The notes under the pieces are model-generated. The model was not told the origin of the DNA. It ran no database searches and saw only the letters and a list, made by a program, of their open reading frames with translations. A DNA stretch of 64,000 nucleotides from Bacteroidota bacterium (GTDB lineage Bacteria; Bacteroidota; Bacteroidia; NORP154), in contig JBDRNO010000218.1 in assembly GCA_043811005.1 (NCBI GenBank), positions 6,925 to 70,924 of the forward strand. Direction: 5' to 3'. Shown here one piece after another: positions 15,596 through 48,269 of this stretch. The stretch's first letter is position 1, and every line of letters starts with the position of its first letter. Both the position numbers and the translations under genes were made by a program.

Positions 15596-15767
15596 GAGAT
15601 TCCTCTCCGCCAGCCGGCGGATCGGAATGACAGTCTTATTTAGAGTAAGGGGTGGGGGTAAGGGCGCGCTTTGCGCGCCCTTACTCCCACTTTCCCAACA
15701 TAACATAGTTGTCATTCCGAACGTAGCGAGGTCCCTCGTTCCTTGGGATAAACTCCGTGAGGAATCT
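15596..15767. repeat. Composite GC-rich REP-like palindromic element
   Basis: Outer arms gagattcctc..tccgccagccggcgga..tcggaatgacag (15596-15633) and gtcattccga...gtgaggaatct (15711-15767) are inverted at their termini. Central 18-bp stem gtgggggtaagggcgcgc-ttt-gcgcgcccttactcccac (15652-15690, one mismatch). A related copy lies at 26727-26769. Confidence 0.7.
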
Positions 15768-16019: not shown

Positions 16020-16041
16020 AGATATATTTATAAAATTAACC

Positions 16042-17511: not shown

Positions 17512-17635
17512 AACTTAAATATTAAAATGATTTGATTTGAATTTGATTTTATAACAAACATAAAATTTGAGATAAAATTAAAAATAAAATTTATAATTTT
17601 GCTTAATTATAAATTCTCTTAAGAAAATAAAACAT

Positions 17636-17854
17636 ATGGAAAGAATTACTATTAATCCGGAAATTTGTCACGGAAAACCTTGCATAAGAGGGATGAGATG
17701 GCCAGTTGAGGTTGTTTTAGATATGCTTTGTTCTGAAATGACAATAAACGAAATATTAAAAGACCATCCTGAACTTGAAAAAGAAGATATAATTGCAAGT
17801 TTGAATTATGCAAAATTATTAGTTTCAGGTAATGCGATTAAGAACGTTGCATAA
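17636..17854 (+). CDS. DUF433 protein (antitoxin-like)
   Basis: 72 aa; ITINPEICHGKPCIRGMRWPVEVVLDML is the DUF433 signature. Its stop overlaps the start of the next gene (ATAATG). Confidence 0.7.
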   Translation: MERITINPEICHGKPCIRGMRWPVEVVLDMLCSEMTINEILKDHPELEKEDIIASLNYAKLLVSGNAIKNVA

Positions 17855-18210
17855 TGAAAATACTGTGCGATGTACATATTTCTTACAAAATTGTTGATTT
17901 TTTTAACAATAAAGGGATTGAAGCCGTTCATGTAAATAATATTCTTGATAAATGGCATACAACAGATCAGGACATTTGTAAATATGCCAATGAAAATAAT
18001 TATGTTGTTGTCAGTAAAGATGTTGATTTTAGAAACAGTTATTTTTTACAAAAAACGCCTAAAAAATTAATTCGAGTTAACCTTGGTAATATTACAAACA
18101 GTGAACTGATTAAAATATTCAACAACAATTTAGCTCTTTTTGAAAAAATTTTTGATAAGGAAAGATTTTATATTGAGATTAATAAAGAAAATATATTTGT
18201 ATCAAGTTAA
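17854..18210 (+). CDS. DUF5615 / Mut7-C-like PIN-fold protein (toxin-like partner of DUF433)
   Basis: 118 aa; MKILCDVHISYKIVDFF..GIEAVHV pattern; translationally coupled to the DUF433 gene. Confidence 0.65.
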   Translation: MKILCDVHISYKIVDFFNNKGIEAVHVNNILDKWHTTDQDICKYANENNYVVVSKDVDFRNSYFLQKTPKKLIRVNLGNITNSELIKIFNNNLALFEKIFDKERFYIEINKENIFVSS

Positions 18211-18278
18211 TAATATTTGGTTAAGTTTTATATTCAATCATAATCTTCTATTCAAGGTTCCTCATATTTTTGTAGAAC

Positions 18279-19592
18279 ATGCATAGAAGATCCTTCACCG
18301 ATACCGTCAACTACTATTTTACGCGGTTCCGGGTTCAACCACCACAGATCAGCGACCCCGTTTCTTCCGGAACGGGAGTGATCATCGTTATACCCTGTTT
18401 CAACGAGCCCGGACTTGTTGAAACATTTGAATCCTTATGGCAGTGTGAGCAACCAAAAGGCGTTGTTGAAATAATTACGGTCATCAATTCCGGAGAAGAT
18501 GCTCCTGATGAATGCATAAGGCAGAACCGCCAAACATACAATGATGCGTTGAAATGGATAGGTTCACATCAACGTGAAAAGCTCGAATTTCACATTTTGA
18601 ATATTATAAACCTCCCTAAAAAACATGCAGGTGTGGGATTGGCAAGAAAGATAGGAATGGATGAGGCATTGCACAGGTTTGAAAATATAGGCTCGGCGGG
18701 TGTGATAGTATGCCTGGATGCAGATTGTAAAGTTGCTGAAAATTATTTAACGGCAATAGAAGATAACTTTGCCCACGGCAAGACAAATGCCGGCACAATT
18801 TATTTTGAACACGATATCAATAGAAAAAATAATAAAGTTTTAATCGAGGGGATCTTAAAGTATGAACTCTTTATTCGCTATAATGTGCGAGCACTAAAAT
18901 TCAGCGGTTTTCCTTATGCATATCATACCGTTGGCTCTTGTATGGCGGTAAGAGCTGATGTTTATGCTTTAGCCGGGGGTATGAACAAGAGAAAAGCCGG
19001 GGAGGACTTTTATTTTTTACATAAAATAATTCCTCTCGGAAATTTCGTTGAGATCAATAACACCTGTGTATACCCCTCACCAAGAATATCCGACAGGGTT
19101 CCTTTTGGCACCGGCAAAACCATGCTGGACTGGGTGAAAAAACATGAAGAGCCGGCAAGAGTCAAGGGACAAGGTCTAAAAGGGGAATTTTTAACATATA
19201 ACTTCTCAACATTTGAGGACCTGCGGGCATTAGTTCTTTCAGTTGATGCCTTGTACAACTGCCATGCGAAATCAAACTACGATGAATTGATGGAAAAACT
19301 TCCCTTATCTGTCAGGATATACCTTAAAGAAGAAAATTTTCATGAAAAGTTAACTGAAATAATTCAAGAGACCTCATCCCTTGTATCATTCAGAAAACGA
19401 TTTTTTGCCTGGTTTAATGGATTGAAGATCATAAAATTCGTTCATTATGCGAGAGATCACTATTATGAACAGGTTCCGTTACATGAAGCATGTAAGCTGC
19501 TACTTCGCAATAAGAATATTAAATTTGCCGATGAAGTGAAAGAGGTGGAATTATTACAGATTTTCAGAGAGTTGGATCGGGATTCTTTATAA
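18279..19592 (+). CDS. Family 2 glycosyltransferase
   Basis: 437 aa; VIIVIPCFNEP..., DADC (DxD-like) and GEDFYF motifs. Confidence 0.6.
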   Translation: MHRRSFTDTVNYYFTRFRVQPPQISDPVSSGTGVIIVIPCFNEPGLVETFESLWQCEQPKGVVEIITVINSGEDAPDECIRQNRQTYNDALKWIGSHQREKLEFHILNIINLPKKHAGVGLARKIGMDEALHRFENIGSAGVIVCLDADCKVAENYLTAIEDNFAHGKTNAGTIYFEHDINRKNNKVLIEGILKYELFIRYNVRALKFSGFPYAYHTVGSCMAVRADVYALAGGMNKRKAGEDFYFLHKIIPLGNFVEINNTCVYPSPRISDRVPFGTGKTMLDWVKKHEEPARVKGQGLKGEFLTYNFSTFEDLRALVLSVDALYNCHAKSNYDELMEKLPLSVRIYLKEENFHEKLTEIIQETSSLVSFRKRFFAWFNGLKIIKFVHYARDHYYEQVPLHEACKLLLRNKNIKFADEVKEVELLQIFRELDRDSL

Positions 19593-19608
19593 TGTAGTGA
19601 TTAATTAT

Positions 19609-20265
19609 CTATTCAAACCTGGCTATAACCGTTTCCCTGCCAGTGACTTTTTGATTTAACTCAACATCTATCTTTATATTTAAAGGAAGTAAAAGATCCA
19701 CACGCGAGCCGAATTTTATAAATCCAAATTCATCCCCCTGCGTTACAGTATCCCCTTCCTTACAATAATAAACTATTCTTCTGGCAACAGTACCTGCAAT
19801 CTGACGAACTAATATAGAAACTTTGTCGTTTTCGATCACAACGGTTGTCCTTTCGTTCTTTGAGGAAGATTTCGGGTGCCAGGCGACTAAATTTTCTCCT
19901 GGATGATATTTAAAATATTTTATGTTTCCGCTAACAGGATACCAATTGATGTGAACATCCAAAGGTGACATAAAAATGGATACTTGCTTCCTTTTTTCAT
20001 TAAAATATTCGGTTTCTTCTACTTCTTCAATAGCTACTATCTTACCATCTGCGGATGCTAAAATATTGTTCTCGTTAATTGTAATGTGTCTGTCAGGGCT
20101 CCTGAAAAACATCAAGATCATTATTAATAAAATAACAGAAACAACAGTGCTAATAATGTTAATGGTTCTGTTTCCAGGAACAAAGTAATATAGTAAAACA
20201 TTTACAATAATTAAAACAACTATTGCAATTAAGATTATTTCATATCCTTCTTTGTGTAGAGACAT
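19609..20265 (-). CDS. psd: Phosphatidylserine decarboxylase proenzyme
   Basis: 218 aa; N-terminal TM segments; self-cleavage site context FGFIKFGSRVDLLLP. Confidence 0.85.
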   Translation of the reverse strand: MSLHKEGYEIILIAIVVLIIVNVLLYYFVPGNRTINIISTVVSVILLIMILMFFRSPDRHITINENNILASADGKIVAIEEVEETEYFNEKRKQVSIFMSPLDVHINWYPVSGNIKYFKYHPGENLVAWHPKSSSKNERTTVVIENDKVSILVRQIAGTVARRIVYYCKEGDTVTQGDEFGFIKFGSRVDLLLPLNIKIDVELNQKVTGRETVIARFE

Positions 20266-20343
20266 TATGATTTAGTATCTAAAAAGTTAAATCTTTGCCA
20301 ATTTTGGCATAAAATTTTAATAAACGTTTCGTGAAGCATAATT

Positions 20344-20482
20344 GTTACTGGTTACTGGGTGCTGAGTACTGGTAGTAATCACTTCATAAAAAATGTTATC
20401 AAAATAAACCAGAAACCAGTTACCAGCCTTCGCAGGCAGTAGCCTGCTTTGGCAGGCGAAGGCCAGCAGCCAGAAACTGTAA
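20344..20482. repeat. Word-hairpin repeat plus GC-rich palindrome
   Basis: Arm ttactggttactgggtgctgagtactggta (20344-20373) faces arm aaccagaaaccagttaccag (20406-25). It is followed by ccttc-gcaggc-agta-gcctgc-tttg-gcaggc-gaagg (20426-20461). Confidence 0.7.
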
Positions 20483-20547
20483 CTTATGTAGTAATATATT
20501 TTTGATAATTTTTATCCTGTTTCGTTCTGGTTCGTCCACCTTATAAT

Positions 20548-21387
20548 TTATCTAATCAATTGCAGGTAAATAAAAACAAAAGGTGTTGAAAGCAGCAACC
20601 CGTCAAATCTGTCTAATATTCCTCCATGGCCAGGTAATATTTTGCCGGAGTCTTTAATATTTAAGCTTCTCTTGAACAACGATTGCACCAGGTCTCCCAA
20701 TGTGCTAAAAACAATGATAATAGCAGCTATTACCAACCAATCAACAACACCAAGTTCTGTAAAATAAATTGATATAATATATGCTATCACAAAACAGATC
20801 ACTGCACCTCCAATGCTCCCTTCCCATGTCTTTTTAGGGGATATTCTTTCAAATAACCTGTGTTTTCCAAAGTTAATCCCGATCAAATACGCAACGGTAT
20901 CATAAGTCCAAAGGAGAAAAAAGAATCCCAAAAGAATGTTTGGTTGGTAGCCTATTTCCGGATCGGGACAAACAATATAATTAATCATGGAAAGCGGAAG
21001 GGCTACATAAATAATTCCCAGAAAAGTATAGGCAATATTCGTAAACGGCTTTTGTGTCTTGCGGAATAGTTCAACAATAAAAAAAAGAAACAATATGGGA
21101 ATGATTAATAAGCATGTTAATCCTTCCCAATTAAATCGAAACAAGTTGGGTGGTATGGTGAAAACAAAAAATGTGTTAGACAAAAACAAAAGGAACGCTC
21201 CTATTACTCCGATTATTTTTTGTGGTTTTATGCCGTCTTTTTCAGATAATTTGTATAGTTCCCACGTCCCTAATACAGTGATAATTGCGAAAAGGACTAC
21301 AATTGCGAGTTGAGACAAAAGTATTGAGCCGATTATTATCGCTATAAAAAATACTCCTGTTATTGTTCTAGTAATCAAATTGCTCAT
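20548..21387 (-). CDS. cdsA: Phosphatidate cytidylyltransferase
   Basis: 279 aa polytopic membrane protein; signature SLFKRSLNIKDSGKILPGHGGILDRFDGLL. Confidence 0.85.
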   Translation of the reverse strand: MSNLITRTITGVFFIAIIIGSILLSQLAIVVLFAIITVLGTWELYKLSEKDGIKPQKIIGVIGAFLLFLSNTFFVFTIPPNLFRFNWEGLTCLLIIPILFLFFIVELFRKTQKPFTNIAYTFLGIIYVALPLSMINYIVCPDPEIGYQPNILLGFFFLLWTYDTVAYLIGINFGKHRLFERISPKKTWEGSIGGAVICFVIAYIISIYFTELGVVDWLVIAAIIIVFSTLGDLVQSLFKRSLNIKDSGKILPGHGGILDRFDGLLLSTPFVFIYLQLIR

Positions 21388-21590
21388 TACAACCTATTTT
21401 TTTTAATTATATGTATAGCCCTCAAAACATCTTTTTTATTCACATATAATTCTATCTCACCGAATAAATAGGATGAATCTTTCTTATTGATATCTATTGC
21501 CTGTATTCCATTTTCAGCTAATACCCCTTTTACTATCTCAATATTATTCACTTGTGTGGAGTTGTAAATATTTACCCAATCCTTTTCCAT
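21387..21590 (-). CDS. DUF2007 (putative signal-transducing) small protein
   Basis: 67 aa; position between the LUD gene and cdsA, and the pattern W..IY......A.IVKG.L...GI, as in flavobacterial DUF2007 genes. Confidence 0.5.
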   Translation of the reverse strand: MEKDWVNIYNSTQVNNIEIVKGVLAENGIQAIDINKKDSSYLFGEIELYVNKKDVLRAIHIIKKNRL

Positions 21591-21593
21591 TAT

Positions 21594-22304
21594 TCACTTA
21601 TTATCATCCACAAGGAAAACACAGACCTCTTTCGGGCCGTGAGCACCTATTATCAGTGTTTTTTCAATATCAGCAGTTCTGCTCGGCCCGGTAATGGTAG
21701 TGATCATAGAAGGAAGCTGGTCTCCGTATTTATCCCTGATACCCTGCAAGGCATCTTTAACATCCTGTACCAATTGCGATGTATATGCCAGCACAATATG
21801 TACGTCTGGAAAAACGGCTAATCTTCTTCCGGATGTTTGTTTGGATGAAATGAGGATACTTCCTGTCCGGGCAATTAAAAATTCGCAAAATGTAATTCCA
21901 GCAATGATCTTATCTGCTTGTTCAGGGGCGGATGCTGATATTTCAGGATCACTTTTTTGACTCTCCGGCAACCCGGCATCATCAGAATATGAAATTTCCC
22001 CTTTGTTTAATAATTCTTTTATATAATTTTCCAGGCAAAAAAGATTTTCCCATTTGGTCTCATTAACCAAACGTTTTAAATTATCAATGAATTCATTTTC
22101 ATTTTCACAAAAGACAAATTTCCCTGAAACCTCTGTGAACTGGCGGGCAAAAGTAATATCCATCTCAGACCTATCAGGATCAGAATAAGCATAAATGCCT
22201 TTATTAAAATCAATCTCGCTATGTAGCGATGTATCTGTTGACTTATGAATAAGGGCTTTCCTGACATTTCTCAGGATTTTTTCTCTTGAAGCGGTTTCTT
22301 GCAT
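21594..22304 (-). CDS. LUD-domain (LutB/LutC-like) protein
   Basis: 236 aa; conserved Bacteroidota position between ftsH and cdsA; C-terminal ..ITGPSRTADIE.TL..GAHGP.. motif of LUD domains. Confidence 0.6.
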   Translation of the reverse strand: MQETASREKILRNVRKALIHKSTDTSLHSEIDFNKGIYAYSDPDRSEMDITFARQFTEVSGKFVFCENENEFIDNLKRLVNETKWENLFCLENYIKELLNKGEISYSDDAGLPESQKSDPEISASAPEQADKIIAGITFCEFLIARTGSILISSKQTSGRRLAVFPDVHIVLAYTSQLVQDVKDALQGIRDKYGDQLPSMITTITGPSRTADIEKTLIIGAHGPKEVCVFLVDDNK

Positions 22305-22397
22305 ATTATTGATTGTTTAGTCAATTACATCTAAAATCTTTGCCACATGTGGCAACAATATTTGCACAAATGCACTGGAACTATGTTATATCAATGA

Positions 22398-22475
22398 TTA
22401 CGCGAATCGTTAATCAGGCGCGAATGAAGCGAATAGTATTCGCATAATTCGAGTTGAAATTAGCGATTCGCGTAA
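22398..22475. repeat. Nested inverted repeat built from CGCGAAT words
   Basis: ttacgcgaatcg (22398-22409) is the perfect reverse complement of cgattcgcgtaa (22464-22475). Inner gcgaata-g-tattcgc palindrome. Confidence 0.7.
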
Positions 22476-22492
22476 CTTTTATCATAAAACCT

Positions 22493-24715
22493 CTAAGGTT
22501 CTGGTTTGTCCAAGTTAGGTTGTTCTTCTTCGTTTTCCTTATTTTCTTCTGCTGTTTGTTTTGCTGTTTTTTTGTCTGTTCCAATATATTGTGTCATATC
22601 TTTCAGGGCATGCTTGTTGAGGGTGGTTTCATCTGTCTTGCTTTCAATTGTTTTCTCTTTCACCTTTTTACTGGTTTTTTCGGCATGTTCCAGCACTGGC
22701 AGTTCATTAGTTCCTTTTACAGACTTTTCTTCCGTATCTTTCTCACCGAAAGGTCTTTTTCCGATCAACCGTACCAGATCATCCTTGAAGATAACTTCTT
22801 TTTTAAGTAATTCTTTGGAAATTAGCTCTAATTCTTTTCTTTTTTTTAACAGTAATTTTTTTGTTCTTTCATAAGCATCTTGCACTATATTTCTAACTTC
22901 CTCATCAATGGTTTGTCCGGTGGTTTCAGAATAGGGTTTTGTAAAAGAGTATTCCCCTTGCTGCGGGTCATAGAATGAGATATTTCCTATTTTTTCATTC
23001 ATGCCGTACATTGTAACCATACTGTATGCAACCTTAGTTACGCGTTCCAGGTCGTCTAATGCGCCTGTTGTAATTTTACCGAAGATTATTTCTTCGGCAA
23101 CTCTTCCACCCAGGGTCATACACATTTCATCTATTAGTTTCTCGGTTCGGTATAAATATTGTTCTTTTGGAAGATATTGTGCATATCCAAGCGCTGCAAG
23201 ACCCCGTGGAACAATACTCACTTTAACCAGGGGGTTGGCATGTTCTAAAAACCAACCTGCAACTGCGTGTCCTGCCTCATGATAAGCGATAATTTCTTTT
23301 TCTTCGGGTGAGATGATCTTGCTTTTCTTCTCGAGCCCCCCTATCACCCTATCAATAGCATCCTGAAAATCCTTCATGCCAACAACCTTACTATTGTTTC
23401 TAGCAGCAATCAATGCAGCTTCATTACATACATTTGCTATATCTGCTCCTGCAAACCCGGGGGTTTGGGTTGCAAGAGTTTTTGCAGAGACATCTTTATT
23501 AAATTTTATCGGTTTGAGATGAACCTCAAATATTGCCTCCCTACCTTTAATATCGGGTCTGTCAATGGCAATTTGTCTGTCAAATCTCCCACCACGTAAA
23601 AGGGCAGAATCAAGTATTTCAGGTCTGTTAGTAGCTGCTAAAATAATAACACCCGAATTGGTTGAAAAGCCATCCATTTCTGATAAAAGAGAGTTCAATG
23701 TGTTCTCCCGTTCATCATTCGCACCTGTGAACTGCGCCCTGCTTCTCGTCCTACCAACAGCATCAATTTCGTCAATAAATATGATGCTCGGGGCTTTTGC
23801 CTTGGCTTGTTTAAATAAATCCCTAACCCTTGCTGCACCAACACCTACAAACATCTCTACGAAATCAGATCCTGTAAGAGAGAAGAAAGGAACGCCTGCT
23901 TCTCCTGCAACCGCTTTAGCGAGAAGCGTTTTCCCGGTACCTGGAGGACCGATCAGTAATACCCCTTTAGGTATTTTTGCGCCTAATTTTGTGTATTTCT
24001 GAGGTTTCTTAAGAAATTCAACTATTTCCTGGATTTCTTCTTTAGCTTCTTCCAGACTGGCAACATCTTTAAAGGAAATATTTATTTCATCAGTTGAATC
24101 AATAAGCGCTGCCCTGGACTTTCCTATATTGAAAATATTGCCAGGACCACCACCAACACCTCCGCTCATTCTTCTCATAATAAATATCCAAAGAGCGATC
24201 ATAAGAATAATAGGGAAAAGCCACCCGAGCAGCTCTCCTCCCCAGTTCTTACGCTTTTCATATACAGGCTCGATAATATCTTCTTCTGCAAACTCTGCTT
24301 GTGCTTCATCTAATTTTTTTACAAATATTTCAGGAGAGCCAATAGTGAAAAAGTAGTGTGGACCTGGATTTGGCGAACCACCAATAGCTTTCTGGCTAAC
24401 CTCATTATACTTTTCATCTGGCAAGAAATCTTTTTTAATATAAATTTCAACTATTTCATTATTAACAACCACTATTCTTTCAACTTCATATTTGTTTAGC
24501 ATCTCTCTTTCAAACTCCTGCCATGTTGTATCTTTTATACTTGAACCCCAATTAAGAAACTGTATCCCGAAAAAAACAAGGGCAATGATCGCATAAATCC
24601 AATATACACTAAATTTTTTCTTTTTTTGTGGATTTGACCTTTTATAAGCACCCCCCTCACCCTTTTTTTCCTGATGATCAAATTTTCCGCTTTTATTCTT
24701 TCCTTCTTTATACAT
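22493..24715 (-). CDS. ftsH: ATP-dependent zinc metalloprotease FtsH
   Basis: 740 aa; Walker A GPPGTGKTLLAKAVAGEA, Walker B IIFIDEIDA, SRH, zinc motif HEAGHAV; Lys/Glu-rich C-terminal tail. Confidence 0.95.
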   Translation of the reverse strand: MYKEGKNKSGKFDHQEKKGEGGAYKRSNPQKKKKFSVYWIYAIIALVFFGIQFLNWGSSIKDTTWQEFEREMLNKYEVERIVVVNNEIVEIYIKKDFLPDEKYNEVSQKAIGGSPNPGPHYFFTIGSPEIFVKKLDEAQAEFAEEDIIEPVYEKRKNWGGELLGWLFPIILMIALWIFIMRRMSGGVGGGPGNIFNIGKSRAALIDSTDEINISFKDVASLEEAKEEIQEIVEFLKKPQKYTKLGAKIPKGVLLIGPPGTGKTLLAKAVAGEAGVPFFSLTGSDFVEMFVGVGAARVRDLFKQAKAKAPSIIFIDEIDAVGRTRSRAQFTGANDERENTLNSLLSEMDGFSTNSGVIILAATNRPEILDSALLRGGRFDRQIAIDRPDIKGREAIFEVHLKPIKFNKDVSAKTLATQTPGFAGADIANVCNEAALIAARNNSKVVGMKDFQDAIDRVIGGLEKKSKIISPEEKEIIAYHEAGHAVAGWFLEHANPLVKVSIVPRGLAALGYAQYLPKEQYLYRTEKLIDEMCMTLGGRVAEEIIFGKITTGALDDLERVTKVAYSMVTMYGMNEKIGNISFYDPQQGEYSFTKPYSETTGQTIDEEVRNIVQDAYERTKKLLLKKRKELELISKELLKKEVIFKDDLVRLIGKRPFGEKDTEEKSVKGTNELPVLEHAEKTSKKVKEKTIESKTDETTLNKHALKDMTQYIGTDKKTAKQTAEENKENEEEQPNLDKPEP

Positions 24716-24774
24716 TAATGATATTTTTTTATTTTAAAATTACTTGTTATAAAATAAGTTCAGATTTTAATATT

Positions 24775-25173
24775 TTATTTCAACTTTGTTTGCTTTAAAA
24801 GACCTTCTTGACCTGATAGGTATTCGGGATCAGCATCCGCCCATAAACCTTCCAAATTATAATATTCTCTTGTTTCTTTCAGGAAAACATGCACTACAAT
24901 ATCAATATAATCCAACAATATCCATTTGGCATTTTCGTAACCTTCCTTATGCCAGGCATTTACACCTGTATGTTTTTTTACCTCTTCTTCAATGAAACTT
25001 GCTATTGCATTAACCTGTCTTGAAGAATCACCATGACAGATCACAAAATAATCGCAAAAAGCATTCTCAATTTTTTTCAGGTTAAACTTAATTATATTTT
25101 CTCCTTTTTTATCCTGAATGACTTTTATAATAAAGTCAACTAATTTTGAAGTTCCATCTGATCTTTTCCTCAT
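24775..25173 (-). CDS. rsfS: Ribosome silencing factor RsfS
   Basis: 132 aa; ..DYFVICHGDSSRQVNAIA..., W.LLDY.DIVVHVF pattern. Confidence 0.85.
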   Translation of the reverse strand: MRKRSDGTSKLVDFIIKVIQDKKGENIIKFNLKKIENAFCDYFVICHGDSSRQVNAIASFIEEEVKKHTGVNAWHKEGYENAKWILLDYIDIVVHVFLKETREYYNLEGLWADADPEYLSGQEGLLKQTKLK

Positions 25174-25431
25174 TCAAATCTAAATGTCAATATTTATAAA
25201 TCAAATTACGAAGTTAAATTCTTATTTTGCATTTGCAGGTACAAAAATAATCATTTCTTTTGCATTAAGGATATAGCTTCTCAAATTTATTGTATCCAAA
25301 TTTCAAAGAAGTCTATTTTTCCCGCAAAGAGCGCAAAGTTTTATCTTAATTAATAATAGCGAACTTTGCGGGCTTGGCGTGCTTTACGGGAGATAAAATA
25401 GCCCATTAAATTTTTGTTTATTTTTTAATCA

Positions 25432-25449
25432 ATCCGATAGCTATCGGAT
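25432..25449. repeat. 18-bp perfect palindrome atccgatagctatcggat (member of the TCCG-NN-AGCT-NN-CGGA family)
   Basis: Perfect dyad. It is a 15-bp insertion relative to the otherwise identical 28-bp sequence at 37571-37598. Confidence 0.85.
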
Positions 25450-25458
25450 TACAAAGTT

Positions 25459-26289
25459 ATGTTCTTAAAAAAAATGTATCGAAGTGAAACATTATTTATT
25501 GGACATAGGATAATAGAATTAAACTCTGTTGGCTCAACAAACAGCTATGCAAGCGAATTATTGAATCCCGATTTTAATCAAAATAATGTTATTGAGGGAA
25601 CGATAGTTCTTGCCTGGTCGCAGTATTCCGGGAGAGGTCAGAGGGGATACAATTGGAAAAGTGAACCATTTAAAAATCTTACTTTAAGCATTATCCTTTA
25701 TCCTGCATTTTTAAGGGCAGAAGAACAATTTATGCTCAATAAGGTGATCTCTCTGGGTGTTTGCGACTATGTATGTAAGGTACACCCCTGTCTCCTACCA
25801 AAGGGAGGGGAGAGCCGACACTCGAAAAGCCCTTCATCTGTGAAAATCAAATGGCCCAATGATATTAATATTGGAGATGAAAAAGTTGCAGGCATATTGA
25901 TAGAGAATTCAATAAGAAATAATAAAATTGTTAGTTCTGTCATTGGTATTGGCTTAAACGTGAACCAAACCCGTTTTAGCAGCGCTATTCCCAATCCCGC
26001 TTCGCTTAAATTAATAATAGGAAAAGATTTTGACTTGAGAACTTGCTTAAGCGAGTTGTGTTCTTTTATTGAAGCCCGTTATTTACAATTAAGATCCGGT
26101 AAAATTGAAAGAATTGATAGTGATTATTTAAAATCTCTGTACAGATACATGCAAGAGAGTTCTTATGAGATCCAGGGAAAACGATTTAGTGCAAAAATAA
26201 CAGGTGTATCAAACCAAGGAAAACTGGTTTTAGAAAAGAAAAGCGGAACTAAAGTGGAATGTGATTTTAAAGAGATTAAATTTATATAA
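25459..26289 (+). CDS. birA: Biotin--[acetyl-CoA-carboxylase] ligase
   Basis: 276 aa; GRGQRGYNWKS (GRGRxGRxW), KIKWPNDI, VAGILIE motifs. Contains an odd GC-rich ~16-aa stretch (aa 108-125). Confidence 0.8.
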   Translation: MFLKKMYRSETLFIGHRIIELNSVGSTNSYASELLNPDFNQNNVIEGTIVLAWSQYSGRGQRGYNWKSEPFKNLTLSIILYPAFLRAEEQFMLNKVISLGVCDYVCKVHPCLLPKGGESRHSKSPSSVKIKWPNDINIGDEKVAGILIENSIRNNKIVSSVIGIGLNVNQTRFSSAIPNPASLKLIIGKDFDLRTCLSELCSFIEARYLQLRSGKIERIDSDYLKSLYRYMQESSYEIQGKRFSAKITGVSNQGKLVLEKKSGTKVECDFKEIKFI

Positions 26290-26290
26290 G

Positions 26291-26464
26291 AACATAATTT
26301 CATTAATTGATTAAAAAAGAAATTATATATATAATTGAGTTAAGAATAAATAAGCTAATGTTGCTGGGTACTGGTTACTGGGTGGTTGTACTGATTTCGT
26401 AGTCTGAGTATAAAACCAACAACCCCGAACCAAGAACCCAAAGCCCAGAAACTGATTATTAAAT
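26291..26464 (+). repeat. Dispersed ~180-bp hairpin repeat, copy A
   Basis: Aligns by eye along its whole length with the reverse complement of 37415-37598. Shared segments: aacataa..attgattaaaaaa, aattgagttaa, taatgttgctgg, core gtactg..gagtataaaac.aacaacc, and terminus ctgattattaaat. Internal GGT-word arm faces an ACC-word arm. Confidence 0.8.
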
Positions 26465-26497
26465 ACTAAAAAAGTTAAGTTCTAAAATAAAGCTTTG

Positions 26498-26513
26498 TCC
26501 GCCAGCTGGCGGA
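26498..26513. repeat. 16-bp palindrome tccgccagctggcgga
   Basis: Perfect dyad; identical copies at 26742-26757 and 48182-48197. Confidence 0.85.
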
Positions 26514-26726
26514 GGCTTTGCGGGAGGATAAAACATTGCAATGGAGCGATGCGGAATTCACGAGGCATATTCGCTTAATTAAAAATCCTTTATTATCAAG
26601 TGTTTCCGATGAGTTTCACCTCAAATATTACCCCAAAACTGAACTAAATAGCACTATTTCGGGGTAATGTTTTCCTAATAGTGTTCTTTTCGCCAGATTA
26701 ATATAAAAATTGCTGTTCATTACCGG

Positions 26727-26769
26727 GAGATTCCTCACTCCTCCGCCAGCTGGCGGATCGGAATGACAG
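26727..26769. repeat. GC-rich REP-like element (gagattcctc..tccgccagctggcgga..tcggaatgacag)
   Basis: Near-identical to 15596-15633. Contains palindrome 26742-26757. Abuts the 5' end of the transposase ORF. Confidence 0.75.
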
Positions 26770-26779
26770 TGATTGTTTT

Positions 26780-28027
26780 TTGGTAAGGAGGGAGAGCGAA
26801 TTTCCCTCACGAACACCTATCCCGAAAAATTCATTATTATACGGTTTGCTCACAGATTTCTCAAAACAACTACCAGATGAACGGGATCCATTGCGCATTA
26901 CTCACGGTATGGACAAACTCATCAAGCAGCGTGTTTTCCTTCAGTGTCTTGGTTATGAAGATTGCAACGACAGTGATGAGTTGTCCCATGATCCTTTACT
27001 CAAGGAGTTTTTGGAAAAGAGTCTGGCTTCTCAACCCACACTGAGCCGGTTGGAGAATAGCGTGGATAAACATACGATAAAGGATTTATTGGAATATTGG
27101 ATTGATCGTTATGTATCAAGTATTGACCCTTCCCGTACTCATATTGTTATAGATGTTGATTCCACTGATGACCCGACTTATGGCTGCCAGCAACTGTCCA
27201 TGTTTCATGGTTACTATTACCATCATATGTACCACATTCTTTTGTTTCATGACGCTCATACCGGGCAGGTGATACTTCCTTTTCTTCGAGCCGGCAATAC
27301 CCATACTGCTGCCGGTGCGACAGCATTATTGAAAAGAATCGTGGAAAAGATACGCAAGCGCTTTCCAGGGATGAAGATCACCTTACGGGCAGATTCAGGA
27401 TTTTCCGGCCCGGACATCTACCGCCTGGCACAAAGGATGTGTCTTAAGTTTTGTATAGGCATACCGACCAACCAACGACTCAAAGCTTTAACATTGGACA
27501 GCGAAAAAAAAGTAGTTAAAAAATATGTCAGTAAGAATATCAAACATCAACGAGTGGTTGGCCCTTTTTTATACCGGGCCAAAAGCTGGGATACCCCACA
27601 AAATGTATGGGCCAAGGTTGAATCTACCGGAAAAGGATTGAATGTGCGTTATATTATCAGTAATATCGAGCAAAAAGGAAAAGATATCTATTTCGGGTTC
27701 TATGTTCATCGTGCCGAGGCCAGCGAGAACAGGATCAAAGAGTTGAAGAACATGTGCTATGCAGACCGCCTGTCATGTCATAGTTTCTATGCCAATTTCC
27801 TGAGGTTATTCTTCAGCTGCCTGTCTTATGAACTCATGCGGTTGCTCAAGGATGTTATAATCAAAACAAACTACAAAAAAGCCAGCAAGTGGCAGGTACA
27901 TAATATCCGCCTGTTCTTACTCAAAATCGGGGCCTGTGTAAAAAAAAGGGTACGCACTATTACTATCTGCTTCTCAAGAGCTTTTCCAAGACAGGCTTTG
28001 TTCAGGCAGGTGGCTGCTCTTTGTTAA
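26780..28027 (+). mobile_element. IS1380-family DDE transposase gene, probably 5'-truncated or degenerate
   Basis: 415 aa. LASQPTLSRLEN, IVIDVDSTDDPTYG, HGYYYHHMYHILLF, LRAGNTH, ITLRADSGFSGPDIY motifs match the IS1380 layout. No ATG start: TTG inside the REP-like element, frame closed at 26699. About 30 N-terminal residues expected from family members are missing. Terminal inverted repeats not identified. Confidence 0.7.
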
Positions 28028-28358
28028 GCAACCTTTTTTCCATGGTTTCCCTCAAGTTGAGCACCCAATCAACAGGGGGAAATAATGTCCAAACTTTGGT
28101 TTTTGCACGGGTTTGTCGCAAAAACAGCTATTACTTTAGTCAAATGTTGCTCTATCTGCAGAACTGCCTACAGAATTTTCGGATATAGTGCTTTCGAAAC
28201 AGGTTTGATCAGTGATTTAACTTTCAGGGACACGCTCAAGTCTTGTCAAAATCGCCCAATGAATAATGCGGGCTATAAAAACAAACAAGATAGTGAGTAA
28301 ATTCCGATACTATAAAATAAAGTCACTTTCATTGGGAAGGGGATGAAAATCCAAGAGT

Positions 28359-28760
28359 CTAATCATTTATCTCTTTCAACTTCTCCACAAGCAAATTAAA
28401 AAAATTCTGCAGTAGATTTTCCACCAACATTTCCATCATAGGATCAAGTTCGGATTCAAATACTAATTGAGAGTTACACTTATCTTTATCAGTATTATCT
28501 ATTTTACAGCTCAGATTAAATTCAAAAGGGGACTTTACAGTAGATTCAATCCTGATCTCCGAGTTGGGTAGCCTGTCAACGATATGCATACCGATAACTG
28601 GCACTCCTTGTAAGGTAAAAGAACATTCATCTATGGTAGATTCAAAGTTTATAACCTGGTTAGGCATTATTTTTTCAAAATTATTGAAATCACTCAGAAA
28701 ATTGTAAATATTCTCAGAAGAGTTGTTGATTTCAACCTTTTCGCTTTCAATTATCGTCAT
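28359..28760 (-). CDS. SRPBCC (START-like) family protein
   Basis: 133 aa; pattern ..SSENIYNFLSDFNNFEKIMP.. typical of small SRPBCC proteins. Overlaps the upstream hydrolase stop by 4 nt. Confidence 0.45.
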   Translation of the reverse strand: MTIIESEKVEINNSSENIYNFLSDFNNFEKIMPNQVINFESTIDECSFTLQGVPVIGMHIVDRLPNSEIRIESTVKSPFEFNLSCKIDNTDKDKCNSQLVFESELDPMMEMLVENLLQNFFNLLVEKLKEIND

Positions 28761-29635
28761 TTTTTAACAGTATTACTCAATAAAAACGATTTTACATCCA
28801 TTGCAGATTGCTCGGGAATCTCGTCCATAGGTACATGTCCTACATTTTCATATAGAATAAGTGTAGAATTTGGAATATCATTTTTGAAACGATAGCCATG
28901 TTCAACAGGTACCCATGTGTCTGCTTCCCCCCAAAGTATAAGAGTTGGCGATTTAATGTTTTTTATTGCATCTGTATTTCTATCAAATTTCGTATTGGCT
29001 ATGGTAATAAAAGCTTCTTGATTGCCATCCATTAAAAACAGTTCATAATAACGTTCAATTAGCTCTTCTGTGATTTTTTGTTGATCGTAATAGACTTCTT
29101 TGAGAAACCTCTCAATTAATTTGCGCGTGGCCACATATTTGATGAATTTGTTAATGAACGGTGTCTGTGCCATTTTAAAGGGTAGAGGGTAATCTTTTCT
29201 TTTAATATATCCGGCAGCATCAATCAGTATCATCTTATTGATCCTCTCAGGATATTCAAGAGCAAATTCCCAGGCAATCCAACCACCTAATGAACTACCT
29301 GCAATATTGCATCGTTCAACCTGAAGTTCGTTTAATAGTGTTTGTAAGCATGTCATGTAAACGCTCTTGGTGTATTCAGCATTGGTGATATGCCCGGTTA
29401 ATCCGAAACCCGGAAGGTCCAACCTGATGATCCTGAAGTCATTGGATAGCTCTTGTGTCCAGCTATCGAACGTATGAAGCGAAGAAAGCGCTCCGTGAAG
29501 CAGTAATAATGGGTATGTATCAGAAGAGATTGACTCCCTGTTTCGGCATTCCTCATCACGGTAATGTATCTGCATTCCATTTATTTCCATAAACCTGGAG
29601 TGCTCATTTATATATTTTTCCTTTATCTTTTCCAT
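28757..29635 (-). CDS. Alpha/beta-fold hydrolase
   Basis: 292 aa; LLLLHG oxyanion region, nucleophile elbow AGSSLGG, C-terminal GHVPMDE. Confidence 0.75.
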   Translation of the reverse strand: MEKIKEKYINEHSRFMEINGMQIHYRDEECRNRESISSDTYPLLLLHGALSSLHTFDSWTQELSNDFRIIRLDLPGFGLTGHITNAEYTKSVYMTCLQTLLNELQVERCNIAGSSLGGWIAWEFALEYPERINKMILIDAAGYIKRKDYPLPFKMAQTPFINKFIKYVATRKLIERFLKEVYYDQQKITEELIERYYELFLMDGNQEAFITIANTKFDRNTDAIKNIKSPTLILWGEADTWVPVEHGYRFKNDIPNSTLILYENVGHVPMDEIPEQSAMDVKSFLLSNTVKK

Positions 29636-30003
29636 AGTAGTTTAAAAAAACGAAAAATAGAAATAATATCTTAAATTAGTAGATCAAAATTAAATAACTT
29701 TTCAACAATTTATAATCACTGACATTATTGCAGAATTATGTGCATTTTTATGCCATAATTGCAGGTTTTTAAATAAATGATAAACTGGCTATTAGCCGAA
29801 TATTTCTTCACGGAAAAATTATATACCTGACAGAATCATTCCCATCTAATTGATATTCAGCTATTTATATTTTATTTTTAAAAACCTTATAGGAATAACA
29901 GATATTCATTACAACTGATATGGCATAGATATTGAAGTATGCGTGCATAACTAATTTAAGTTTAACCTTGTTCCGCAATAACGGCACAAATAAAAATTAA
30001 GTC

Positions 30004-30360
30004 ATGAAAAATGAAAGCATTTTTAAGAAAGTCATCTATGCAGGCGTAGGATTGGCTGCAGTAACTGTTGACAAAATTGAAGAAACTGTTAACGAACTCG
30101 TTGATAAAGGAAAACTTTCCGACAGCGAAGGCAAAAAAATCGTTAAAGATTTCTTCGCAAAAACAGATGAAAAAAGAGAAGAATTCGAAGAAAAATTAAA
30201 AACGACAGTAAAGGAGGTCGTTGATAAGTTCAATTTCCTCAAAAAGGATGATTACGAAGTTTTAAAGAAGCGGGTAAAAGAACTGGAAGATGAGTTGGCA
30301 AAGAAAACAGACGATAGTAAAACTTCTCCCGGTAAAGTAAAAGCTACTGTTGTTAATTAA
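30004..30360 (+). CDS. Phasin-family-like coiled-coil protein
   Basis: 118 aa; GVGLAAVTVDKIEETVNELVDKGKLS..EGKKIVKDF resembles COG3937 phasin-like proteins. Followed by a terminator. Confidence 0.45.
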   Translation: MKNESIFKKVIYAGVGLAAVTVDKIEETVNELVDKGKLSDSEGKKIVKDFFAKTDEKREEFEEKLKTTVKEVVDKFNFLKKDDYEVLKKRVKELEDELAKKTDDSKTSPGKVKATVVN

Positions 30361-30388
30361 CAGTATATAAAGATGGCTGAAAAATGAA

Positions 30389-30429
30389 ATGCCAGGTCTG
30401 TATTATATAGATCTGGCATTTTTTTTTTA
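30389..30429 (+). terminator. Rho-independent terminator
   Basis: atgccaggtct-gtattatat-agatctggcat (11-bp stem, one mismatch) followed by a run of 10 T. Confidence 0.8.
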
Positions 30430-30680
30430 CACATTATCTAAAAAATATTTACTATTGTAGTGAAAAGGACATAGCTAGGCAAATTTATTAAAAAGGAATT
30501 AATCGGAAACTTCAATGCTTATTTTAATATTTACCTATCTACTATTTACCCGCTCTGTCCTTGTTATTTGTTATTAGTTATTGGTTATTTGTTAAAAAAG
30601 ATGTATCTATGTGCCATTTACACCAAGGTGCATAAATTATGGAATATATAGCAGGAAATAAATCTTTCTAAATTTGAAAC

Positions 30681-30793
30681 AAGTAGGCAATTAACAATAG
30701 GCAGTAGGCAATATGTTTTTTTACCAACTGCATACTGCCAACTGTCAACTTGCCTATTAACATCAACAAAATTATCGTCCGATAGCTGACGGA
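30681..30793. repeat. TGCCAAC/TGCCTAC-word hairpin element ending in palindrome tccgatagctgacgga
   Basis: Arms aagtaggcaattaacaataggcagtaggcaa / ccaactgcatactgccaactgtcaacttgcctatt, then aacatcaacaaaattatcg, then the palindrome at 30778-30793. Homologous copies at 33201-33305 and 48182-48269 (reverse). Confidence 0.75.
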
Positions 30794-30820
30794 TGGTAAA
30801 TTTGCTTTTTTAAGAACCTA

Positions 30821-32555
30821 ATGATAACCATCCAGACTTTTAAAAATATTAAGCGAATACAAAAGATCATACAGGTTTTAATAAAGTATGGTTTTGAAGA
30901 GGTAGTAACGCATACTCCGTTAAAGCAGTTGGTCCCTAAAAAATTGCGATTATCCTGGTTACGGCAGTCTAGACCTGTCTTTGAATATACAGTCTGGGAG
31001 CGCATCAGGATGGTCTTTGAAGAGTTGGGGGCTTCATTCGTCAAACTAGCACAAGTATTAAGTAACCGTACGGATATGCTGCCCGAACCATTGCTCAAAG
31101 AATTTGAAAAACTCCAGGATAAAGTCCCCCCTTTTGAATTTAGTATAGTTAAATCTATAATTGAGAAAGAGACAGGGAAAAAACTTGAAGATACTTTTGA
31201 ATGGTTTGACCAAACACCTCTCGCATCAGCATCTATAGGTCAGGTACACCGTGCAAGATTATCCTCCGGAGGCAGATCCATGCCTACCGACAAGCAAGGC
31301 GCCTTCGGCGGGAATGAGGGGAGATGTTGTTGTTAAAGTACAACGTCCAGGAGTAAAAGAGATAATAAATACTGATATTGACATTCTGACTGAAATCGCC
31401 AGACGGGGTGAGAACTATTTTGAAAAGAATGGTATTACTAATGTTCTTGACGTTGTGAACACTTTTAAGAAAACCATACAAAAGGAGCTGGATTACAACA
31501 GTGAAGCCAGAAATATTGAGCAATTTCGTTTGTATTATATAAATAACAAGAATTTCTACGTGCCTTATGTATATAAAGAAATTTCAACCGACAAGGTTTT
31601 GATAACGGAATTTGCTGAGGGTTGTAAGATAACTGATCTTGAACAATTAAAGGAATGGGGAATTGATCATGTGCAGTTAGCCGAAACTGGCATGCACATC
31701 TATTTATCTCAAATTTTTGAACATGGATTTTTCCATGCCGATCCTCATCCCGGTAATATCATCATCAAAAAAGACGGAGTTATTTGCCTTATAGACTTCG
31801 GAATGTCAGGTAAATTGATAAAAAGGGATAAATATGCGTTTGCAGGATTATTTATAAGCATGGCTCAGCAAAACCCTCAGCGGATGGCTGATAATTTTCA
31901 ACGGCTTGCCATTACACATCAGATAACGAACAGAAAAGTTTTTGAAAGTGACTTGAACGACATCATCGAGGATTTTACCATGCTGGATGTTAGTGAAAGC
32001 AATATGGCTGAACTAGCGGTACGTTATCAGAAAATTATTTATGACTATAAAATGAAAGTACCTGGGGGTGTTTTCCTGATACTTCGCGCATTGGCAATCC
32101 TTGAAGGTATAGGCAAAACTCTGCACCCTACTTTGAACATATTTGAGTTTGTAAAGCCGTACGGAGCCAAACTACTTAAAGAACAATATTCAATTGGGAA
32201 TATTTCGGAAGAAATTATATACCGGTTTACTCAATTTGATTATTTCCTGAGAAGTTTCCCCCGTGAAATGAATGATATTTTGAGAAAAATCAGAAAAGGA
32301 GAACTACATATTGAAGTTGAAGATAAAAAACACGACCATTTCAGAAAAAAAATGGAGATTGTAGCAAACCGGCTTATTCTGGCTTTTATAATAGGAACAC
32401 TTATTATAGCATCTTCAATAATGATGACCACTGATCATACCTCTGGAATTACTACTTCAAACGGCATACCTTACTTCAGCATATTCGGATTCTCTTTATC
32501 GGCTTTTTTGGGATTTATATTATTTGTTTCTATGTGGAGAAGCGGGGGGGAATAA
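30821..32555 (+). pseudogene. ubiB: UbiB/ABC1 (AarF) family atypical kinase, reading frame broken by a GC-rich insert
   Basis: ORF 30821..31336 carries ..LASASIGQVHRARL. ORF 31251..32555 continues in the +1 frame with ..GDVVVKVQRPGV...HADPHPGN...IDFG. In intact family members about 5 residues separate these motifs; here 58 nt (31262-31319, much more GC-rich than its flanks) intervene. Confidence 0.75.
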
Positions 32556-32580
32556 ATTTAAGGTTCATCACAATAATTGA

Positions 32581-33180
32581 TCAGAACGGAATATGAATTA
32601 TCCCAATCTGGATCAATCCAACCATAAAACCTACAACAGCACCTATAAATTCGATGAATCTGAACTCACTTTCAAGAATGTCCAAAATCAGCTTTTCCAA
32701 TTGTGCGGTAGAAAAGACAGCAACTTTCTGCCGGATTATTTCCTCGATATCTAAAGAAGCTTCAATATTAGCAACAGTCTGGTCAATCATCTCAGGTGCT
32801 ATTTTATTCATCTCGTTCATAAATTCCTGTTTTATTTTTATTTTGGATTTCTTTCTTACGAATAAAGATATCACCGGATATTTGGATGGAAAAGTGTTTT
32901 CGAGGTAGTCCTCGAGTTTTCTTTCAATATTTTGATTGATCTGAGCAACATTTTTGGGGTGTTTGATGATCGCCTGAATTTCTTTAACGGATAACAGGTC
33001 ATCCGCAACAAGTTTACCGATCTTTACAGCCAATAACTGCTGCCTTTTAGGAAACACTCCCTGTATTTCGAAAAACAGGATCTTTACCTTCTTCCGGGGA
33101 TGAAATAACATTTTAACCGCCAGAAAATTTGTAAACCAACCTATTACGGCTGCGATTATCGGAAGTGTATAGATGAACAT
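32581..33180 (-). CDS. DUF445-family membrane protein
   Basis: 199 aa; IGWFTNFLAVKMLFHPRK...GVFPKRQ pattern. Confidence 0.55.
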   Translation of the reverse strand: MFIYTLPIIAAVIGWFTNFLAVKMLFHPRKKVKILFFEIQGVFPKRQQLLAVKIGKLVADDLLSVKEIQAIIKHPKNVAQINQNIERKLEDYLENTFPSKYPVISLFVRKKSKIKIKQEFMNEMNKIAPEMIDQTVANIEASLDIEEIIRQKVAVFSTAQLEKLILDILESEFRFIEFIGAVVGFMVGLIQIGIIHIPF

Positions 33181-33200
33181 TAAATTTTACTAAATATTAT

Positions 33201-33305
33201 GCAAGTAGGCATCCGATAGCTAACGGATTGACAGTAGGAAGTAAGCAATTTTTTCTTTTATACCAACTACATACTGTCAACTTGTCAATTAACACCAACA
33301 AATTA
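33201..33305. repeat. TGCCAAC-word hairpin element with palindrome tccgatagctaacgga inserted in its left arm
   Basis: gcaagtaggca[tccgatagctaacgga]ttgacagtaggaagtaagcaa...taccaactacatactgtcaacttgtcaattaacaccaacaaatta. The homologous copy at 30681 lacks the palindrome at this position. Confidence 0.75.
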
Positions 33306-33325
33306 AAGCTAATATGTAAGTCTTT

Positions 33326-33979: not shown

Positions 33980-33986
33980 GCTGTAA

Positions 33987-34598: not shown

Positions 34599-34654
34599 TT
34601 AATTATTAAAGTTATATTCTTGACTGTTTAATACTTAATATCCCATTTCTCCAA

Positions 34655-37414: not shown

Positions 37415-37598
37415 ATTTAATAATCAGGTGCTGGGTGCTGGGTTCTGGGCACTGGGTTCCAGGTTGTTAGTTTTATACTCAAACTCTGTAACCAGTACAT
37501 ACCACCCAGCACACAGCAACCAGTATCCAGCAACATTATCTTATATATAATTAACTCAATTTAAAATATTTTTTTTAATCAATTTACAAAGTTATGTT
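37415..37598 (-). repeat. Dispersed ~180-bp hairpin repeat, copy B (inverted relative to copy A)
   Basis: Reverse complement aligns with 26291-26464. Contains the empty-site version ttttttaatcaatttacaaagttatgtt (37571-37598). Confidence 0.8.
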
Positions 37599-44835: not shown

Positions 44836-44840
44836 ATTAA

Positions 44841-48181: not shown

Positions 48182-48269
48182 TCCGCCAGCTGGCGGATGG
48201 ATAATTTTGTTGATATTAACAGACAATTGGCAGTTGGCAATTTGTTCTTTTTGCCAACTGTCAACTGCC
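48182..48269. repeat. Palindrome tccgccagctggcgga plus TGCCAAC-word hairpin element (reverse orientation)
   Basis: Reverse complement reads ggcagttgacagttggcaaaaagaacaaattgccaactgcc..ttaatatcaacaaaattatcca-tccgccagctggcgga, the same layout as 30681-30793. Confidence 0.75.

Follow-up and report, generated by a model that had tools for sequence, protein, structure and literature searches.

A short GC-rich hairpin palindrome recurs across low-GC bacterial genomes and is probably a spreading insert

A 64,000-nucleotide stretch of DNA from a Bacteroidota bacterium (assembly GCA_043811005.1, contig JBDRNO010000218.1, positions 6,925 to 70,924 of the forward strand), hereafter the window, carries seven copies of a small palindrome whose canonical form is (A)TCCGCC-NNNN-GGCGGA(T). 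Here, I argue from sequence comparison that this palindrome is probably a selfish hairpin insert that spreads. The family occurs at a frequency far above chance, has both filled and empty sites, sits at hairpin tips and in frame within coding sequence, conserves its stem while its loop is free, and stays identical where the flanking DNA has diverged.

The window has a GC content of 36% and encodes domains of type IX secretion (CHU_C, Por_Secre_tail and PorP/SprF in Pfam). The pattern TCCGNNAGCTNNCGGA matches it six times, against 0.00 matches in 100 dinucleotide-preserving shuffles of the window and about 0.0007 expected from base composition; one AGCC variant joins these six exact TCCG-NN-AGCT-NN-CGGA sites (Table 1). 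Two subfamilies are distinguished by compensatory changes on both stem arms, namely TCCGCC-AGCT-GGCGGA, with three exact copies and the loop variant at 15606, and TCCGAT-AGCT-ATCGGA, with one perfect and two degenerate copies. The copies fold as DNA hairpins with a 6-bp stem and a 4-nt loop, and TCCGCC/GGCGGA is the sole recurrent GC-rich hairpin stem within the window. The closest pair of copies lies 244 nt apart, and regular doublets are not seen. The initial annotation of this DNA had listed seven copies, and all are present at the positions that it gave. Its description of the central AGCT as fixed does not hold, for copy 15606 carries AGCC, and in other genomes it is these four central nucleotides that vary; copies 30778 and 33212 are imperfect dyads.

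Two pairs of filled and empty sites, both already read as insertions in the initial annotation and both confirmed here, point to mobility. The host repeat at 25421-25463 equals that at 37571-37598 plus 15 nt (28/28 identical), these being the only two copies of that repeat in the window. In the second pair, established by alignment among three related elements built of TGCCAAC words, copy 33212 reads ggca(TCCGATAGCTAACGGA)ttgac, whereas the homologous positions in the two other elements are empty and read ggcaAttaac (30686-30695, empty position 30689/30691) and ggcaGttgac (reverse complement of 48260-48269, empty position 48264/48266); the net gain is again 15 nt. Two of the three word elements carry the palindrome at another, mutually homologous position, after ...caacaaaattatc. 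No target-site duplication was found at either window insertion site.

Outside the window, the exact 18-mer ATCCGCCAGCTGGCGGAT was sought in one genome per species (185,579 species, 596 Gb, scanned as 8-kb blocks) and occurs in at least 118 blocks, about 9-15 being expected by chance. Twelve listed blocks are of high GC content (57-73%) and hold the 18-mer in long open reading frames (ORFs), where it reads IRQLAD, and the number expected by chance is covered by these twelve. The remaining blocks listed, about 106, come from low-GC genomes, most of them metagenome-assembled genomes (MAGs). Among these listed matches are about 44 blocks of Bacteroidota (Bacteroidales, Prolixibacteraceae, Chitinophagales with five Niastella blocks, Ferruginibacter, Saprospiraceae, Pedobacter, Mucilaginibacter, Sphingobacterium, Olivibacter and Aquiflexum), about 38 of Patescibacteria (the Candidate Phyla Radiation, CPR) and five of Cloacimonadota, besides Marinimicrobia, Fermentibacteria and several MAGs labelled Gammaproteobacteria or 'bacterium'. 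The 18-mer is also carried by cultured isolates, namely Niastella yeongjuensis DSM 17621, Pedobacter psychrophilus, Sphingobacterium nematocida, Olivibacter domesticus and Aquiflexum lacus. The family first proposed from the window, with its filled and empty sites, extends to more than 100 genomes, in which it is found at hairpin tips, in word arrays, in pseudo-copies of 5S rRNA and as in-frame inserts.

That the matches are due to chance, or to an artefact of assembly or sequencing, is extremely improbable. The twelve high-GC matches are indeed ordinary coding sequence, as chance predicts, and MAGs supply most of the low-GC ones; yet the window holds six sites where its shuffles hold none, the more than 100 low-GC matches have unrelated flanks and stem from many laboratories and assemblers, isolates are among the carriers, and the copies are located in a structured way, on hairpin tips or in frame. 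The distribution of the family across taxa is patchy. In viral contigs the CC form matched once, in a chance-like way, the AT form did not match, and the 14-base pattern matched at chance level only; 719 kb of other Bacteroidota loci, a negative-control set retrieved with an unrelated (BirA-like) protein, held no full 16-mer site and one 14-nt core; and no palindrome turned up in 51 kb of DNA that is syntenic with the window and comes from its nearest relatives (73% identity in FtsH). The intergenic spacers of these relatives are compact, the one between birA and rsfS measuring 51-86 nt against 285 nt in the window.

In other genomes, whose palindrome-bearing loci (labelled L121-L238) hold about 150 copies, 17% of copies are centred exactly in at least four further perfect base pairs, against 0.6% of random control positions. 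The host hairpins that bear the palindrome at their tip include terminator-like stems (L132, with aaaagtcc...ggactttttt, as well as L152, L160, L214 and L237) and stems of the gtcattgcg...cgcaatgac type (L148, L173, L153, L184, L215 and L226). At other loci (L131, L162, L167 and L183) the palindrome lies inside A/T-rich tandem or inverted word arrays, an architecture like that of the window. A further case concerns a 5S rRNA locus (L176): the true 5S gene has the tip AGGTAAAACCT within the helix-tip sequence ggtactAGGTAAAACCTgggagag, while downstream of it two tandem partial 5S-plus-terminator duplicates have ATCCGCCAGCTGGCGGAT at the tip position and read ggtactATCCGCCAGCTGGCGGATg(a/g)gagag, from which it follows that the helix tip has been replaced by the palindrome.

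Several side observations concern these arrays. ACTGCC-type words like those of the window arrays flank the palindrome in two Bacteroidales MAGs (L142, L179); in a Patescibacteria MAG (L174, 3690-3790) a 22-nt tandem array, ttggcgTCCGCCGACTGGCGGA, is made up of four hairpin units; and in a Prolixibacteraceae MAG (L151, 4750-5200) six units that vary in loop or stem lie within 450 nt, among GGTCCAC/GTGGAC words.

Coding sequence is the other frequent location. Among the matches listed, ORFs of at least 150 codons hold 41 of 118 low-GC copies, the majority of these in CPR genomes, several of these calls of the palindrome as coding being made on ORF length only. The reading frames are xPPAGG (25 copies), SASWR (9) and IRQLAD (7), and the canonical palindrome has no stop codon in any of its six frames. 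The host genes encode LeuRS (L191, L197), TatD (L166), RsgA (L209), PheS (L234), CysRS (L122) and Pth (L129, L177). In the LeuRS of L191 and L197, which belong to two CPR lineages, the zinc knuckle reads IYC-DPPAGG-C, the position at which 100 of 119 homologues have C-x-x-C and that of L169 reads YCD----DCG. Along the same line, the TatD of L166 reads AEKYN-PPAG-GLYATVG against AEKYD----GVWATVG in L191, also a CPR genome, and homologues in the PDB are likewise without the insert. Incidentally, many of the best-matching LeuRS homologues (P0001-P0120) have only 300-440 amino acids and are therefore partial or split gene calls; the contigs may be fragmentary, or the LeuRS genes may truly be split.

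Orthologous genes share the palindrome letter for letter (18/18) although their flanks agree at only 76% of positions (L193/L231) or at 47-60% (L191/L197, with proteins 41.6% identical). Ordinary descent under protein-level selection would not be expected to keep it so, and the identity despite diverged flanks points to recurrent insertion at the same permissive site, to repeated homogenisation from other copies or to selection on the DNA hairpin. One-mismatch variants show 10 changes in the 4-nt loop against one in the 12-nt stem, the loops seen among near-canonical copies including AACT, AGCC, GGCT, GACT and others.

A stem that is kept while the loop is free would also be expected of a structure-dependent binding site, and the palindrome could then be a selected cis element rather than an insert, namely the operator of a dimeric protein, a factor-bound RNA hairpin or an intrinsic terminator. 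Mapping places all seven window copies between genes, several of them near gene starts or ends and several just upstream of start codons; one copy (30772-30799) passes a scan for a hairpin followed by a T run, and terminator-like stems followed by T runs occur in other genomes (L132, L152, L214). This explanation is nevertheless improbable. Neither position nor distance relative to genes is consistent, and the neighbouring genes have no common functional theme. Only one of six copies (in 15000-34900) is terminator-like by its T run, whereas a normal terminator of this genome (30386-30422) has a long one; elsewhere the palindrome sits within pre-existing terminator stems and does not form them. 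About a third of the copies in other genomes lie in frame within housekeeping genes, others lie within non-functional 5S pseudo-copies and other repeats, and the nearest relatives, alike in gene order, are without copies.

The ends of the insert and its size bear on how it may have arisen. When flanks left unconstrained by the search pattern are inspected, T...A surrounds CCGCC-N4-GGCGG nearly always, and AT usually stands on at least one side. The net gain is +15 and +15 nt in the window, +7 nt in the 5S copies, and +12 and +12 nt in LeuRS and TatD, the protein insert sizes being derived from alignments to diverged homologues, and the PDB alignments of RsgA and TatD giving approximate lengths only, on account of natural loop variation. 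The LeuRS and TatD inserts are most simply described as +12 nt, with CCGCCAGCTGGC placed between ..AT and GGA... In every case the inner 12 nt are new DNA, whereas the target may have supplied the outer A/T and GGA(T) bases; 1, 1, about 3-4 and 9 target bases are replaced, without duplication.

A net gain that varies in this way fits poorly with a fixed cut-and-paste cassette and better with templated copying that uses terminal microhomology. Spread might even need no enzyme: during replication or repair of AT-rich, hairpin-prone DNA, a nascent strand would switch template to an existing stable hairpin copy and return via 1-4 nt of terminal microhomology (AT.. / ..GGAT), a route for which apex conversion or microhomology-mediated templated insertion would be suitable names. 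The variable gain and number of replaced bases agree with it, as do outer palindrome bases that can be read as target-derived (both coding targets plausibly had ..AT^GGA..), the preference for hairpin tips and the failure to find a linked gene. I nonetheless consider this route unlikely, since 1-4 nt of microhomology is very weak for ectopic template choice, and since it leaves unexplained both the amplification of one sequence rather than many and the presence of the same 16-18-mer in unrelated phyla but not in close relatives. Moreover, the conservation of the stem against drift suggests recognition by something.

As a spreading selfish insert, the cassette would multiply within genomes, would have reached several phyla, and would act as selfish DNA and not as a gene-regulatory site. 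Each new copy would add 12-16 nt without target-site duplication and would replace a few target bases, often those of a hairpin tip, while its outermost A/T and GGA(T) could come from the target. The preferred sites would be those that are easily single-stranded or extruded, that is, the tips of hairpins and terminators, A/T-rich arrays of heptamer words and ...AT^... contexts, and copies in genes would persist only where the added PPAG(G) peptide lands in a tolerant loop. The cassette would presumably be recognised as a folded single-stranded hairpin and copied or pasted, with the donor copy kept, by an enzyme that acts in trans, is specific for structure and is encoded at some other place in these genomes. 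The initial annotation had called the element autonomous-looking, a description that does not stand, for 12-16 nt have no coding capacity; encoding nothing, it must move in trans or be copied passively. As to the identity of the mover, a single-strand DNA transposase of the HUH/Y1 (IS200/RAYT-like) type is a candidate, since a RAYT subclass with atypical structures is peculiar to Bacteroidetes (PMC6006769), though it is a doubtful one.

Several points weigh against a spreading insert with such a mover. The evidence for mobility is wholly comparative, the taxon list for the 18-mer is a sample and not a census, and the net gain is not constant. No Y1/HUH domain was found among 51 window ORFs scanned with Pfam, and no mobilising gene in the window or near other copies. 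All-against-all clustering of 1,321 ORFs revealed no protein family that recurs beside the palindrome in 102 loci, and none of the ORFs between paired copies (11 loci) is transposase-like. Finally, metagenomes scanned with the BirA-like protein yielded no match of more than 49% identity, and no orthologous filled/empty pair between close strains was obtained from the collections covered.

The initial annotation had also seen no candidate enzyme in the window. There is in fact one transposase ORF, at 26780-28027 (DDE_Tnp_1_4, E = 3e-108), from which no link to the palindrome was found; about the first 34 model positions are missing, no ATG occurs before residue 44, and it is probably a 5'-truncated remnant of an insertion sequence (IS). 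Copy 26742 lies 23 nt upstream of it, and the palindromes might accordingly be imagined as remnants or solo ends of a conventional IS or of a MITE (miniature inverted-repeat transposable element), such as this very element, moved by its transposase. In a Bacteroidetes MAG, CTSoil_027, two copies (L135, L178) share a right flank of at least 51 nt at 86% identity, beginning cggaatgRca, while their left flanks are unrelated, so that the palindrome there forms one boundary of a larger repeat; the same cggaatgRca follows window copies 15606 (15622-15634) and 26742 (26758-26770). An origin from an IS or MITE is very improbable all the same. The transposase ORF is truncated at its 5' end and no inverted repeat pairs the palindrome with its far side, and copy 15606 has a like host hairpin without a transposase nearby. 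Terminal inverted repeats and target-site duplications are absent, no transposase family recurs across the 102 loci, and inserts of 12-16 nt are far below any MITE; neither the 50-500 bp of a MITE, nor inverted repeats matching those of an IS, nor any IS with matching ends was found.

Among known systems, the closest parallels by description include the small dispersed repeats (SDR1-8) that Elhai et al. reportedly described in 2008 in Nostoc and other cyanobacteria. They are discussed in PMC3116915 and PMC5861425, the latter of which places no SDR5 outside Nostocaceae. Both are very small (tens of nucleotides for SDRs), dispersed and proposed to be mobile; both are nested in other repeats, including tandem heptamer arrays, a combination also found in the window and in CPR loci; and both are precise inserts without terminal inverted repeats or target-site duplication. 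They differ in that SDRs measure 21-27 nt and are reported only in cyanobacteria, whereas the palindrome adds 12-16 nt, is a perfect GC-rich hairpin of identical sequence across Bacteroidota, CPR and Cloacimonadota, and is frequent inside protein-coding genes.

The initial annotation had likened the element to repetitive extragenic palindromic (REP) sequences and their RAYT transposases. REPs are imperfect palindromes of 20-40 bp with a GTAG or CGTC tag at one end, some of them lying inside genes (PMC3733652), and Bacteroidetes have a RAYT (TnpA-REP, Y1 HUH) subclass of their own with 'atypical' structures (PMC6006769). REPs, REPINs and the present family have in common that they are short GC-rich hairpin palindromes in many dispersed copies, with stems kept by compensatory change. 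Membership is not upheld, however: the seven window copies and the approximately 150 copies of the other loci have no GT[AG]G or CGTC tag, only T or AT on the 5' side and A or AT on the 3' side. REPs are mainly extragenic, downstream of genes and often in doublets, whereas this palindrome is a perfect one of 16-18 bp, about one third of whose copies lie in ORFs, without regular doublets; and REPs are specific to a species or clade and co-evolve with their RAYT, whereas here one sequence spans phyla. A cognate RAYT gene was seen neither among the 51 window ORFs scanned nor between paired copies (11 loci).

Rickettsia palindromic elements (RPE) are, according to PMC3733652, selfish palindromic repeats that lie in frame in functional genes and add a tolerated peptide. 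In-frame insertion of a palindromic repeat into coding genes is thus shared, but RPEs are of about 100-150 bp, confined to Rickettsia and carry a CGTC tag, whereas the palindrome is ten-fold smaller, adds 4-5 codons and has unrelated hosts. The palindromic GC clusters of mitochondria (yeast and others), such as GC42 (PMC4478555), are likewise GC-rich palindromes that proliferate in very AT-rich genomes, sporadically, with evidence of horizontal transfer and with merging or nesting, and both DNA- and RNA-mediated routes have been proposed for them; they differ in being organellar, 30-60 nt long and associated with a putative AG/TAG target duplication, whereas the palindrome has other hosts and shows no duplication. 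The likeness to HIP1 (GCGATCGC) that the initial annotation had suggested goes no further than strong over-representation of a short palindrome: HIP1 is not an insert but a word of 8 bp whose enrichment throughout the genome, codons included, stems from selection or biased repair and which has no filled or empty sites, whereas the palindrome has filled/empty pairs, and HIP1 itself has no copies in the window. In Rfam 15 no match reached the gathering threshold anywhere in the window, which also has no tRNA or tmRNA, and no description of the palindrome sequence or of the host-hairpin words was found in the searchable literature. Size, cross-phylum sequence identity and presence inside essential genes make the family distinctive among very small dispersed palindromic repeats.

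The intergenic regions of the window are packed with arrays of 7-nt words (Table 1), which are often long imperfect inverted repeats, fold significantly better than shuffles and resemble the heptameric short tandemly repeated repetitive (STRR) sequences of cyanobacteria; the compact spacers of the nearest relatives are without them. With inverted word arms on both sides, the PF05635 gene occupies the loop of such a hairpin, an arrangement that recalls the ORF-bearing intervening sequences of rRNA, and no homologue of this gene was found in the palindrome-bearing loci. The ispH gene is split in two, where relatives have an intact gene of 407 amino acids, and this reflects a pseudogene or else an error of sequencing or assembly. 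Two TTGCCA-N4-6-TGGCAA dyads might act as an operator or be a motif associated with promoters. A defence-like cluster includes a restriction-methylase of the Eco57I/MmeI type. Enzymes of the MmeI family recognise TCCRAC-like sites.

Table 1. Palindrome copies, their empty counterpart and other features of the window
Feature	Position	Strand	Remarks
Loop variant TCCGCCAGCCGGCGGA (AGCC)	15606..15621		Tip of a GATTCC..GGAATG-type host hairpin (15598-15629)
Copy TCCGATAGCTATCGGA, perfect, AT subfamily	25433..25448	none	Filled site of host repeat 25421-25463; with flanks a 20-nt palindrome, 25431-25450; DNA hairpin -4.1 kcal/mol, z = -4.2
Canonical copy TCCGCCAGCTGGCGGA	26498..26513	none	Hairpin -5.9 kcal/mol
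Canonical copy	26742..26757		Tip of host hairpin GATTCC..GGAATG (26729-26765); adjoins DDE ORF 26780-28027
Degenerate AT-subfamily copy TCCGATAGCTGACGGA	30778..30793		End of word element 30681-30775; position homologous to copy 48182
Degenerate AT-subfamily copy TCCGATAGCTAACGGA	33212..33227		Within left arm of word element 33201-33305
Canonical copy	48182..48197		Inside exact 18-mer ATCCGCCAGCTGGCGGAT (48181-48198); end of TGCCAAC-word element; begins 23 nt past the stop codon of gene 47605-48159
Empty homologue TTTTTTAATCAATTTACAAAGTTATGTT	37571..37598	+	Single T where 25421-25463 has 16 nt; net +15 nt
Host word hairpin	30681..30775	+	GTAGGCA words left, TGCCAAC words right; left arm corresponds to the 33212 site without its insert; z = -4.0
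7-nt word arrays	20333-20480, 26356-26450, 30681-30775, 33240-33305, 36158-36220, 37423-37540, 40355-40570, 40700-40835, 44840-44935, 48215-48275, 51605-51648, 56248-56300 with 56480-56522		Words CTGGTTG/CTGGGTG, ACTGCCA/ACTGTCA, AATTGTT, TACGAAA; about 30 tandem word units in 40355-40570
cccgcaaag / ctttgcggg(a)gataaaa word family	15655-15685, 25310-25400, 26514-26535, 48300-48330		Hairpins beside palindromes
Separate GC palindrome gggcgcgctttgcgcgccc	15662-15680		
TTGCCA-N4-6-TGGCAA dyads	20296-20316, 22336-22359		30-40 nt upstream of minus-strand starts (psd; LUD-domain gene)
PF05635 gene	52697-53110	-	23S rRNA intervening-sequence protein, bAvd-like four-helix bundle; flanked on either side by inverted arms of heptamer words, 37 nt each (52675-52711, 53135-53171)
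ispH (LytB)	43532-44835		Two ORFs via a 1-nt frameshift near 44165-44175 (aaggtagg; relatives imply aagggtagg)
Defence-like cluster	564-8047		Eco57I/MmeI-type restriction-methylase (564-3851), KilA-N protein (3855-4715), SNF2 helicase with PLD nuclease domain (4688-8047)

Going beyond a spreading insert as such, it is possible, and suggested here only tentatively, that the palindrome represents an undescribed class of mobile DNA, in which a 12-16-nt hairpin would be written by a horizontally shared enzyme system into hairpin tips and ...AT^GGA...-like sites, with replacement of a few target bases, across the Candidate Phyla Radiation and the Fibrobacteres-Chlorobi-Bacteroidetes (FCB) group, repeatedly remodelling essential proteins with a PPAGG loop. 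The system could then consist of hairpin-specific cleavage and joining of single-stranded DNA or of a mechanism based on reverse transcription or a templated patch, possibly with insertions recurring at one and the same site in distantly related lineages, for example in LeuRS.

If confirmed, the palindrome, which adds 12-16 nt, would rank with the smallest proliferating DNA units on record, and the same sequence in Patescibacteria and Bacteroidota, together with its occurrence in aminoacyl-tRNA synthetases, Pth, RsgA and TatD, would imply a sequence- and structure-specific machinery. It is a searchable marker for finding the enzyme by phylogenetic profiling, with culturable hosts in Niastella, Pedobacter, Sphingobacterium and Olivibacter, and an enzyme able to insert a given hairpin into single-stranded DNA would be a potential tool. 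The finding also touches on the mobility of cyanobacterial SDRs and of mitochondrial GC clusters, a long-standing question, and it could explain how AT-rich genomes gain GC-rich hairpins, terminator extensions and small protein-loop insertions.

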